IMG/VR virus record: IMGVR_UViG_3300027625_000002
Length of the DNA stretch: 64,000 nucleotides
DNA from: a virus
Reading direction: 5' to 3' (one strand)
The notes below the pieces were generated by a model. The model saw only the letters and a list, made by a program, of their open reading frames with translations, did no database searches and was not told where the DNA came from. Shown here in pieces: positions 7,435-9,159 of the stretch (positions within the stretch are counted from its first letter, which is position 1; the number at the start of each line of letters is the position of its first letter). A program made the position numbers and the translations under genes.

Positions 7435-7983
7435 TCAGTCCTCCTCTTTTTCGGGGAATGGCTCGCCGCAGTTGCTGCATTTGGTTTTGCCCGGCCTACT
7501 GAACGCGCCGCACTCGGGGCACGCGGGGTTATTCCATGCGGCCTTGCAGCGACCGCCGGCGATCTCCATGAGCTGCACGAGCGCCTCGCCGCCGACCCCG
7601 ACGTCGGGGACCTCGAAGGGTCGATCGTCGAGGACGAATTCAGCGTTGTCGTCGAACCATGACGGACCCGCACCCATCGCCATGTAGGCGAGGCTATGGC
7701 CGAAGGCCTCGGGACTCGATCGCGTGGGTGAGCCCTCATTCTCGCGCTCGTTCGCCGCGAGGGCCTCTTCGTAGAGTTCGTCAAGCTTCCTGCCGTTGCG
7801 CTTCTCGATCGCCTTCGCCCACTTCTCGGCGTAGGTGTGCGCTTCCTCTGGGACGCGCGGCATGATGTCCTCGATGCTCCTACCCCCGAGCCTCTCGCAG
7901 CCATGCTCCTCGACGTGATTGGACCAGGCGTCCGCCCAGATGAGCGACGCCATCGCGTCCACGATCTCCGATCGCAAGCTCAT
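7435..7983 (-). CDS. hypothetical protein with C-terminal CxxC-x10-CxxC Zn ribbon
   Basis: ORF track 182 aa. Confidence 0.6.
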   Translation of the reverse strand: MSLRSEIVDAMASLIWADAWSNHVEEHGCERLGGRSIEDIMPRVPEEAHTYAEKWAKAIEKRNGRKLDELYEEALAANERENEGSPTRSSPEAFGHSLAYMAMGAGPSWFDDNAEFVLDDRPFEVPDVGVGGEALVQLMEIAGGRCKAAWNNPACPECGAFSRPGKTKCSNCGEPFPEKEED

Positions 7984-8033
7984 CGTGACACCACGTGGTA
8001 ATCCTCGGCGGAGAGCGCGTCGAGCGCGCAGTG
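7882..8033. repeat. direct repeat DR2a (~152 bp: 5' end of 7435..7983 gene + upstream junction)
   Basis: ~96% identical to 9008..9159. Confidence 0.85.
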
Positions 8034-8055
8034 CTCCGGCGCTTCGAGGGCTTTC

Positions 8056-8430
8056 CTAGTTCGCATCGCGACTCGTGCCGGTCAGTCCGTCGCGGATGAT
8101 CTCGAGCTGCTCGCGCGTTGCTGCGTCCAAGCCTTTGCTTTCTGCCTCGAGCTGAAGGACGACGGAGAGTGCTTTCTGCCTGCACGTCTCCGCCTTCTCC
8201 TTTTTGAGCCTCTCCTTCTGCCCATTCAGCATGAGCGCGAGGCTGACCGCCCAGAGCAAAAAGGCGCACTCGATGGACTCCACGAGCGGTTTGTAGTGAA
8301 AGCACAGGATGGATGTCGGCACGACCACGACGAGCAAGAAGGAAATCCCGACGCCGCCGATCCGTCGGTGCGCAGCACGAAAGGCGTTCTTGAGCGCGCT
8401 CGTCATCCTCGCCCCAATCTTACGTCCCAA
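8056..8430 (-). CDS. hypothetical membrane protein (2 TM) with C-terminal coiled coil
   Basis: ORF track 124 aa. Confidence 0.5.
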   Translation of the reverse strand: MGRKIGARMTSALKNAFRAAHRRIGGVGISFLLVVVVPTSILCFHYKPLVESIECAFLLWAVSLALMLNGQKERLKKEKAETCRQKALSVVLQLEAESKGLDAATREQLEIIRDGLTGTSRDAN

Positions 8431-8609
8431 TACTTGCCCGGCATCTTGCGCATGAGCGACGCGAGGTAATCGATCCCCTCCTTCTGGGGCACATCAGCAA
8501 GATCGTACGATCTCTCTTCCCAGAACTCGGCGATGTTGCCGGCTTGGCCCATGAGCGCCGCGACGATCCGTTCCTTCTGCTCCTTTGTGAGTGCCATGTG
8601 CGTCTCCAT
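8403..8609 (-). CDS. hypothetical protein
   Basis: ORF track 68 aa. Confidence 0.45.
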   Translation of the reverse strand: METHMALTKEQKERIVAALMGQAGNIAEFWEERSYDLADVPQKEGIDYLASLMRKMPGKYWDVRLGRG

Positions 8610-8891
8610 TCAATCGATCGGATGCTCTTCGGCCCACCGCTCAACGGCGTCGAAAACCTTGTCGGGGTTCTGCGTCGACATCTCGTGGCCGCGAACCGGA
8701 ATCTCGGTGTACCTCTGTCCAGCGTTCGGCAGCCCGTAGTCTACGGCGGAGTAGAAGTACGTGTACTTGCGAAAACCGGGTTCGCCGTGGCGCCAACGCC
8801 GGGCAAAAATCATGAAGCGCCGGTCTTCGCTCTTGGCGTAGATACCCGACTCGCCGATCTTCTTCAGCGTTGACGTGGTCCAGCGAATCAC
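8610..8891 (-). CDS. hypothetical protein
   Basis: ORF track 93 aa. Confidence 0.5.
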   Translation of the reverse strand: MIRWTTSTLKKIGESGIYAKSEDRRFMIFARRWRHGEPGFRKYTYFYSAVDYGLPNAGQRYTEIPVRGHEMSTQNPDKVFDAVERWAEEHPID

Positions 8892-8923
8892 GTTGCCTCC
8901 GACCTAGTTCGCACAGGACTCCT

Positions 8924-9109
8924 TCAGCGTCTTGATCCAGTGCTGAGCGCACTTGTCGAGACCCGCGGGTTTCGGTGCCCTCGCCATGACGACCGCTTTC
9001 TTCCTGCACCCCCGAGCCTCTCGCAGCCATGCTCCTCGACGTGATTGGACCAGGCGTCCGCCCAGATGAGCGTCGCCATCGCGTCCACAATCTCCGATCG
9101 CAAGCTCAT
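8924..9109 (-). pseudogene. truncated duplicate of N-terminus of 7435..7983 (MSLRSEIVDAMATLIWADAWSNHVEEHGCERLGG...) fused to unrelated tail
   Basis: First 34 codons near-identical to 7435..7983 start, then diverges where DR2b ends at 9008. Confidence 0.45.
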
Positions 9110-9159
9110 CGTGACACCACGTGGTAATCCGCGACGGAGAGCGCGTCGAGCGCGCACTG
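9008..9159. repeat. direct repeat DR2b
   Basis: Copy of 7882..8033; covers native 3' end of gene 9106..9432. Confidence 0.85.

Follow-up and report, generated by a model that had tools for sequence, protein, structure and literature searches.

The 64,000-nucleotide stretch of the virus record IMGVR_UViG_3300027625_000002 that we analyzed (hereafter the window, with positions counted from its first letter) carries, at the junction of two small genes that we call A and B, 974 bp of foreign DNA enclosed between two near-identical copies of that junction. We consider it likely that this fragment of about 0.97 kb came from a related genome and was inserted at the A/B junction by illegitimate recombination, duplicating the target. 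The locus looks like the product of untargeted illegitimate recombination filtered by selection and not of a dedicated shuffling system. Huge phages carry hundreds of small genes of obscure origin, and how these accumulate is poorly documented; the locus is an unusually legible acquisition scar, in which the recipient junction and its duplicated target can be recognized together with a chimeric piece of the disrupted donor gene and, in a relative, a surviving donor-type context.

The duplicated junction and its foreign insert

A repeat search, MAFFT, and blastn all recovered the direct repeat, termed X, at positions 7882 to 8033 and 9008 to 9159 (1,126 bp from start to start), with 147 of 152 positions identical, five mismatches, and no indels. 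A preliminary description of the same DNA had reported this 152-bp repeat at about 96% identity, which holds, although it had counted six mismatches where there are five. The blastn core spans 7882 to 8030 and 9008 to 9156 (145/149 identical; E = 4.8e-70), identity in the MAFFT alignment collapses on either flank, and exactly two copies of X are present in the window. Read on the minus strand, each copy contains, as described earlier, the last 17 codons of A (codons 92 to 108), an ATGA stop/start overlap, and the first 34 codons of B. The features of the locus are as follows.

9106 to 9432, minus strand: gene A, 108 amino acids, intact; its stop TGA overlaps an ATG (ATGA)
9008 to 9159, minus strand: upstream copy of X; A codons 92 to 108 functional, B codons 1 to 34 a nonfunctional copy
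8924 to 9109, minus strand: B' open reading frame (ORF), 61 codons, chimeric; B codons 1 to 34 followed by 27 codons of the U relic out of frame
8904 to 9007, minus strand: U' relic, the 3' end of donor gene U; last 23 codons match at 22/23 amino acids, with weaker similarity up to the boundary of X
8610 to 8891, minus strand: i1, 93 amino acids, GTG start; small conserved family
8403 to 8609, minus strand: i2, 68 amino acids; weak match to phrog_18336, an uncharacterized phage family (E = 8e-6)
8056 to 8406, minus strand: i3, 116 amino acids from the ATG at 8406; two hydrophobic segments, then a charged tail
8034 to 8055, minus strand: spacer of 22 nt between the i3 stop and the downstream copy of X; right-hand joint
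7980 to 8066, minus strand: relic mini-ORF, 28 codons in the old frame of A; ATG inside the end of i3, TGA overlapping the ATG of B
7882 to 8033, minus strand: downstream copy of X; noncoding relic of A codons 92 to 108 plus the functional start of B
7435 to 7983, minus strand: gene B, 182 amino acids, C-terminal zinc ribbon, intact
6999 to 7433 and 6603 to 6995, minus strand: the two genes after B

The three small genes and the truncated duplicate start of B between the copies had all been noted before and are present, but i3 more likely starts at 8406 than at 8430. The B' ORF is probably a scar: the U tail follows B codon 34 in another frame, and B' consequently ends in 27 meaningless codons. 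The Joint Genome Institute (JGI) gene caller leaves B' uncalled, and the 215-nt gap that its gene tables show between A and i1 consists of two gene fragments back to back, one from B and one from U. In the downstream copy of X, B retains its native 51-nt leader, and the 28-codon mini-ORF may keep it translationally coupled. Gene A has no known domain (no match in Pfam, PHROG, PADLOC, or NCBIfam), and its sole homolog beyond its own population is P0016, which is 67% identical and was found in one other lineage only (contigs L021 to L024). A 14/15-nt match between the joint after X and the interior of i3, and 57% identity over the 21 nt upstream of the downstream copy, could hint at an older duplication or one of greater length, but both were set aside as not distinguishable from chance.

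Exact-protein look-ups with A, B, i1, i3, and the variant P0015 yielded contigs from over 15 samples (JGI, Logan, and ENA). The more than 25 independently assembled contigs that reach across both copies of X all carry the same copy-specific differences, and every contig that reaches far enough has the same gene order, namely, A, genes of 93, 68 or 64, and 116 amino acids, and B. These contigs are at least 99.86% identical to the window over positions 7400 to 9480, so the population is nearly clonal, and the insert is fixed in it. Many short contigs do end inside X (L008, L012, L035, and L042 to L044), as would be expected of a collapsed or chimeric repeat but also as the usual assembly-graph effect; because identical diagnostic differences between the copies recur in the spanning contigs, which stem from different samples and assemblers, an assembly artifact is hardly conceivable. 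One of the short contigs, the 1,063-bp unitig L035, was considered as an excised circle and rejected, being collinear with window positions 9037 to 7975, with ends that do not overlap and with breaks inside the repeats. The excised form whose search had been proposed as a check was found neither in relatives nor in the population, where about 25 contigs and the exact-protein look-ups also gave no empty A-B site and no circle junction.

The question raised earlier of whether the mismatches between the copies are recent has a divided answer. Position 9134 is a segregating single nucleotide polymorphism (SNP), with T in the window and C in L001, L003, and L036, and this difference is recent, since the C is also the base of the downstream copy and of the outgroup; the other four mismatches are fixed in the population. 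At two sites in the A part of X, the relic keeps the outgroup state ("AED" in P0016/L021) and the functional A is derived.

As for the insert of about 1 kb proposed in the preliminary description, the 974 bp between the copies is foreign DNA, an arbitrary slice (U'-i1-i2-i3) of a related genome. It has no similarity to its flanks, and tblastn of i1 to i3 against the window returned self matches only. Its donor-type context came from a GTDB scan with i1, which led to L037, a 1,581-bp contig (DAIOWK010000507.1) binned in a Myxococcota metagenome-assembled genome, a binning that is weak evidence of host. There, a full-length gene U of 98 amino acids, ending ...PKPDGLDKCAQHWIKTLKESCAN*, lies directly upstream of i1, and the contig is 95.6% identical in nucleotide sequence to window positions 8905 to 8746 (12 nt of spacer and the first 146 nt of i1), after which it ends. 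By blastn, L037 positions 1325 to 1406 align with window positions 8985 to 8903 at 84%, corresponding to the tail of U; full-length U is absent from the window, and its tail at 8904 to 9007 is the only part present. L037 has a whole U where the window has a truncated one, so the DNA moved into the window lineage from a donor that, like L037, still carried the complete gene. At its left end, the insert has truncated U fused out of frame to B codon 34, which identifies it as an arbitrary fragment. This B::U joint lies at 9007/9008 and reads ...GGGGGT|AGG in B, ...GGGGGT|GCAGG in the window, and ...ACGGTGCTGC in U of L037, so that a microhomology of 2 to 3 nt (GGT/GTGC) is possible. Upstream of U, L037 has a gene of 84 amino acids that is 67% (amino acid) and 78% (nucleotide) identical to window positions 43529 to 43762; set against the 95.6% for i1, the 78% for this neighbor points to a transfer that took place after the lineages had split. 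In the spacer between U and i1, L037 (1406 to 1435) has an 18-nt insertion relative to the window, made up of two tandem copies of GGCCAGAGA.

The genes of the insert offer little indication of function. The i1 family is a real, conserved domain found in 26 representative clusters (E ≤ 1e-3), in some of which it forms the C-terminal part of longer proteins; i1 itself has no domain match, and Pfam searches of the longer proteins gave no functional clue. The two hydrophobic segments of i3 look like transmembrane helices in a Kyte-Doolittle scan. The match of i2 to an uncharacterized PHROG is the sole profile match for the insert and for the genes of a companion insert described below, and none of these genes, nor A, B, or U, matched a recombinase, nuclease, transposase, or defense protein in Pfam, PHROG, PADLOC, or NCBIfam.

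Mobile-element features are thus absent. No terminal inverted repeats of the insert were found, and we rejected a transposon or insertion sequence (IS) as its source on the grounds that these and a transposase are missing and that the duplication measures 149 to 152 bp and not 2 to 15 bp. Direct repeats around an insert are also a hallmark of att recombination, and integrases have not been searched for exhaustively across the element, but integron-like or integrase-mediated integration of a cassette, with the copies of X as attL and attR, is nonetheless very improbable: neither an integrase nor an attC-like inverted repeat was seen in or next to the insert (the search was confined to that region), the left end is a truncated gene out of frame and not a defined end, the companion repeat shares no core with X, and the duplication spans 51 codons of two coding genes. 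Only slightly less improbable is a local tandem duplication of A/B followed by divergence and by deletion or replacement of most of the first copy, an alternative named in the preliminary description. Tandem paralogy is common in these genomes (the basic-protein family at 10065 to 10829, an 83-nt duplication at 10506 to 10622, and copies of a gene like 6999-7433 that flank a homolog of the 6603 gene in the relative L020), but the insert resembles neither B nor 6999-7433 nor any flank, it has an independent donor context with full-length U, and more events would be needed than for direct insertion.

Companion repeat, relatives, and the host element

The preliminary description had pointed to a second example of the same architecture nearby, and three genes are indeed bracketed by a companion repeat, X1, 3.7 kb from X. 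Its copies at 4168 to 4233 and 5330 to 5395 are identical at 64 of 66 positions and extend to about 79 nt with one 2-nt indel, and the repeat unit measures 1,162 bp, compared with 1,126 bp for X. These are the only two near-identical local direct repeats in the window. The features of the companion are as follows.

5316 to 5395, minus strand: upstream copy of X1; last 22 codons of the CmpB-like gene 5327-5713, its stop, and a ribosome-binding site
4245 to 5309, minus strand: companion insert; three genes of 61, 136, and 150 amino acids
4153 to 4233, minus strand: downstream copy of X1; relic of the CmpB 3' end, in a 28-codon mini-ORF (4156 to 4242) just upstream of 3718-4149

In the 66-nt core, neither of the two base differences alters an amino acid when read in the old CmpB frame. 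The 150-amino-acid protein is a 35%-identical paralog of gene 6999-7433, and the 136-amino-acid protein has homologs in the same interval of the relative L045. X and X1 are unrelated in sequence, with an alignment score within the range of shuffled controls, and a systematic comparison of every gene 3' end with the 4 kb downstream of it, bearing on the earlier proposal to look for further junction duplications, gave no clear cases in the window beyond these two.

Two further candidates are less clear, since a conserved basic tail at the C terminus of tandem paralogs accounts for them in part. The first, an analogous case in the relative L028, is a single additional gene flanked by a 51-nt duplication of a gene 3' end; L020 has the same junction without the interruption. 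Within the window, the 83-nt junction duplication at 10506 to 10622 includes a 34-nt junction repeat (10506 to 10539 and 10589 to 10622) and lies in an array of tandem small basic proteins of 79, 60, and 88 amino acids with a 28-codon mini-ORF at 10593 to 10507 (array 10065 to 10829, minus strand). The 79- and 60-amino-acid proteins and the mini-ORF end in a KRxxA(R/H)HxGxR* tail with a CGATGA stop/start overlap, and CGATGA junctions recur at many gene boundaries of the clade. Counting these candidates, relic ORFs of 27 to 28 codons occur in four places (X, X1, L028, and 10593 to 10507), and in every case the ORF has an ATG of its own beside the stop that precedes it. A repeat-bracketed gene of another kind is seen in L020, where two copies of the 6999-like gene (6519 to 6775 and 7345 to 7602; 82% nucleotide identity over 263 nt) flank the 6603 homolog, an arrangement made of whole paralogs and not of a junction fragment.

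From its two examples the preliminary description had drawn a recurrent cassette-shuffling process. A dedicated process of this kind is not supported, because the two cases in 64 kb fall in one hypervariable stretch, have arbitrary ends, and share no signal; no recombinase, no terminal repeats, and no motif common to X and X1 were found. A more specific version would have a circle carrying X and U'-i1-i3 integrate by a single crossover in X and remain able to excise, in a recurrent cycle like that of the PeSL mini-circles of T4-type phages. Direct repeats on both sides of the insert would be an automatic outcome of such a crossover, a repeat of 149 bp offers phage recombinases sufficient length, two units of similar size (1,126 and 1,162 bp) lie close together, and the insert is closer to L037 than the backbone gene is, implying movement between lineages. 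We nevertheless regard this version as unlikely. Both illegitimate joints (B34::U' and i3::A92) would have to exist in the circle beforehand, which leaves the origin unexplained; an empty site or a circle junction appears in 0 of about 25 contigs, L035 being collinear with the window and its ends not overlapping; and X is not dispersed (two copies, unrelated to X1) and carries no promoter-terminator module, with no promoter-like site in window positions 3500 to 10500 and no terminator-like site in X or X1.

Comparison with relatives shows that both repeats lie in hypervariable islands between conserved genes, where each lineage has a gene content of its own. In L021 to L024, the only relatives with A, the gene order is homologs of 9850 and 9442, A, 6337-6606, genes of 83 and 125 amino acids, CmpB-like, and 3020-3301, giving the backbone adjacencies A|6337 homolog and CmpB|3020 homolog. 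Relative to the L021 backbone, the window has additional DNA at two points, B'-U'-i1-i2-i3-relic-B-6999-6603 after A and the 61-, 136-, and 150-amino-acid genes, the relic, and genes of 143 and 123 amino acids after CmpB; B, 6999-7433, and 6603-6995 are thus all missing between A and the 6337-6606 homolog in L021. The CmpB-to-3020 interval is empty in L021, holds a 221-amino-acid gene in L016, and in L045 holds a 143-amino-acid gene and a homolog of the 136-amino-acid gene broken by an IS1595 element. IS1595-family transposases were observed in these same islands of two relatives (L045, 12045 to 13034; L019, 8465 to 9355).

The upstream neighbor of B differs in each of eight neighborhood types (L016 to L018, L019, L020, L027, L028, L032, L033/L034, and L045/L046), and a 6999-7433 homolog follows B in most relatives (L016 to L018, L020, L026, L027, L045, and L046). 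B is a wandering module, mostly traveling together with the 6999-7433 homolog. The claim that A directly followed by B was the ancestral state therefore rests on the relic, which implies that the two genes were once adjacent; in the only A-bearing relative the 6337-6606 homolog follows A while B wanders elsewhere, no relative among the A- or B-homolog loci in nine neighborhood types has A directly followed by B, nor does any strain, and a metagenome scan with a B-family alignment returned seven loci, none with A upstream. The A-B adjacency known from the relic itself arose through an earlier module gain.

Dispersed paralogs and diverged repeats were also observed in the window. The 144-amino-acid gene after B (6999-7433) has two more copies, 4245-4697 and 30350-30616, at 31 to 39% identity, and the former sits inside the companion insert. 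The zinc-ribbon-like 130-amino-acid gene 6603-6995 has a 47%-identical copy at 37204-37533, 30 kb away. Diverged dispersed repeats of 72 to 75% identity include 26415 to 26518 versus 35498 to 35601 and a 47-nt family of three copies (1319 to 1365, 37543 to 37589, and 52410 to 52456).

The host of the locus is a very large, phage-like element, as judged by its gene content, a jumbo-phage-like protease, and the 150- to 600-kb contigs of its relatives. The window has a G+C content of 62 to 63%, with almost all genes on the minus strand, and encodes PcfJ and a DNA methyltransferase. A transfer-messenger RNA (tmRNA; Rfam RF00023, 88 bits; tag ANDNAFAPALAA) directly adjoins a tRNA-Met (34787 to 35266, minus strand), and the pair is followed by a 287-amino-acid protein with an S24 peptidase domain (35329 to 36192). 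RNA repair is represented by an RNA ligase (47540 to 48385, minus strand; phrog_14301, E = 1e-44) and RtcB (54120 to 55544, minus strand; PF01139, E = 7e-85), near which lies a protein with a phosphoribosyltransferase domain (52720 to 53517). An 870-amino-acid protein (48757 to 51369, minus strand) carries a major-vault-protein shoulder (PF11978, E = 1.5e-29) and a vault repeat (PF17795), and a vault-type protein is unusual for a phage-like or bacterial element. The AAA protease at 62737 to 63996 has its best phage relatives in the jumbo phages PBS1 and AR9, at 39% identity. Homologs of B occur on contigs of up to 600 kb (L016, ENA ERZ25039491 contig_10361, 600,485 bp) and those of A on contigs of up to 219 kb (218,816 bp for the longest contig carrying P0016 on the index); L019 and L021 measure 171,661 and 151,677 bp. 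No capsid or terminase was seen in the 64-kb window. Megablast of window positions 6500 to 10500 against phage records, IMG/VR scans with A, B, i3, and U, and tblastn of concatenated i1, i2, and i3 against phages gave no match, and the clade was not found in IMG/VR or GenBank phage records.

Probable route of insertion and proposed selection for intact genes

The preferred reading, insertion of a related-genome fragment with duplication of its target, can be set out as a series of steps. The fragment would have consisted of the 3' end of U, i1, i2, i3, and 22 nt, landing at the tightly packed, translationally coupled A/B junction with its two joints staggered by about 149 to 152 bp on the recipient, the left one after B codon 34 and the right one before A codon 92. 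The likeliest route would be replicative template switching, in which A and then B were copied as far as codon 34, the polymerase switched to the donor, and copying returned to the recipient about 150 nt back; end-joining of a linear fragment at staggered breaks would be equivalent. Either route could have run as one event or as two successive crossovers, and template switching, staggered-break end-joining, and two unequal crossovers are variants that cannot be separated at this locus.

Selection would explain why such a product survived, in that the duplication keeps A whole, B whole, and the native upstream context of B. ATGA-type overlaps pack genes here (the A/B and i2/i3 junctions and the small-gene array at 10300 to 10830), and a blunt insertion would for this reason break a gene or orphan the start of B. 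This translational-coupling rationale is plausible but weakly supported, since the cases are few, the pattern was noticed post hoc, and two cases are confounded by the conserved basic tail. It suggests why junction-duplicating insertions survive in operons built on stop/start overlaps.

Several points weigh against this account. The former A-B adjacency is reconstructed from the relic alone, no uninterrupted A-B genome having been found. The donor is known on the left side alone, as L037 ends inside i1 and the right joint lies beyond its reach. The 84-amino-acid gene of L037 and 43529-43762 might be paralogs, which would weaken the argument from 95.6% versus 78%, and the case in L028 is confounded by the conserved C-terminal tail common to tandem paralogs. 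Finally, four sites that are fixed in a population of at least 99.86% identity differ between the copies of X, and so either the event is old or the copies came from slightly diverged parents.

The second of these options leads to a scheme of two successive unequal illegitimate crossovers between diverged, co-replicating genomes, the first producing A-B'::U'-i1-i3 and the second joining another lineage at A codon 92, such that each copy of X came from a different parent. It would account for four fixed differences (2.7%) between copies where strains differ by at most 0.14%, and for a relic copy that is ancestral ("AE") beside a functional copy that is derived, and every relative has a modular mosaic in this region. 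The first step, however, would join loci some 35 kb apart, as the U-i1 context of L037 matches the window at 43.5 kb, which would require an extensive deletion or rearrangement if that step was not itself a small insertion, and one of the derived differences is a recent SNP, so that divergence after the duplication explains at least part of the pattern. As explanations of the four fixed differences, the two-parent variant and ordinary divergence following an old event are equally good, and overall we consider the two-crossover scheme a minor possibility.

Similarly doubtful is a broader reading, in which the clade adds ORFan genes by a regular replicative process: fragments of about 1 kb and about three genes would be taken from a co-replicating relative at coupled junctions, with a back-step of 80 to 150 bp, and the upstream 3' end would persist as a translated mini-ORF of about 28 codons, passing ribosomes to the downstream gene. 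The units of 1,126 and 1,162 bp, the relic ORFs of 27 to 28 codons, and the synonymous differences in the CmpB relic fit such a process without establishing it. If it were true, the growth of huge phage genomes could be read off from such relics. Under the preferred insertion reading, homologous recombination between the direct repeats could still remove the insert precisely or amplify it, but neither outcome was observed.

Comparison with known systems

Replicative template switching, as in fork stalling and template switching (FoSTeS) or microhomology-mediated break-induced replication (MMBIR), is described in eukaryotes and bacteria; the templated insertions that it produces have a duplication of the departure region on their flanks and microhomology of 0 to 5 nt at the joints. 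Here it is the proposed mechanism, and the possible microhomology of 2 to 3 nt can be examined at one joint only.

ORFan cassettes in the hyperplastic regions of large phage genomes, with recombinable direct repeats around them, are also known from T4-type phages, where shuffling is mediated by PeSLs and mini-circles (Arbiol et al. 2010, PMC2839356). The resemblance is superficial, as PeSLs are dispersed and have a conserved promoter-plus-terminator motif, whereas X and X1 are unique local coding duplications without such signals.

Closer parallels exist in phage mosaicism by illegitimate recombination and selection (the Hendrix/Hatfull model; T4-like phages reviewed in PMC2993671), in which novel joints concentrate in nonessential regions of small ORFans and survivors keep the flanking genes functional (PMC2993671). 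The abrupt B(1-34)::U' joint at 9007/9008, the gene fragments left behind, and the presence of whole U beside i1 in L037 agree with this model. Unlike most described mosaic joints, which fall at gene boundaries and involve no duplication, two gene fragments and a 150-bp duplication remain here.

In its outward form the locus is most readily compared with insertion with long target duplication (Nobusato et al. 2000; Furuta et al. 2010, PMC2853133), in which 46- to 423-bp target duplications accompany inserts without mobility genes and the repeats often overlap the 3' end of a flanking gene and support later amplification or loss (PMC2853133). Both involve foreign genes of at most a few kilobases, no mobility genes, and unique direct repeats of a local target; the repeats here exceed 30 bp (149 to 152 bp at 97% for X and 66 to 79 bp for X1), and the insert of 974 bp is below 20 kb, with no mobile-element genes in or adjoining it. 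The published cases, by contrast, are restriction-modification systems in bacterial chromosomes, each defined by an empty site in a sister genome, whereas three ORFans in a huge phage-like element are involved here, the left joint lies inside two genes, and no empty site was found among the A/B-homolog loci, the only one being that in L020 for the analogous case of L028.

Gene gain at this locus needs no dedicated mobile element. As a case study, the locus also offers a pattern, duplicated gene 3' ends, by which recent gains can be sought. It represents a known kind of event, akin to long target duplication and phage mosaicism, in an unusual and poorly known host, and neither a new mechanism nor a new mobile cassette.

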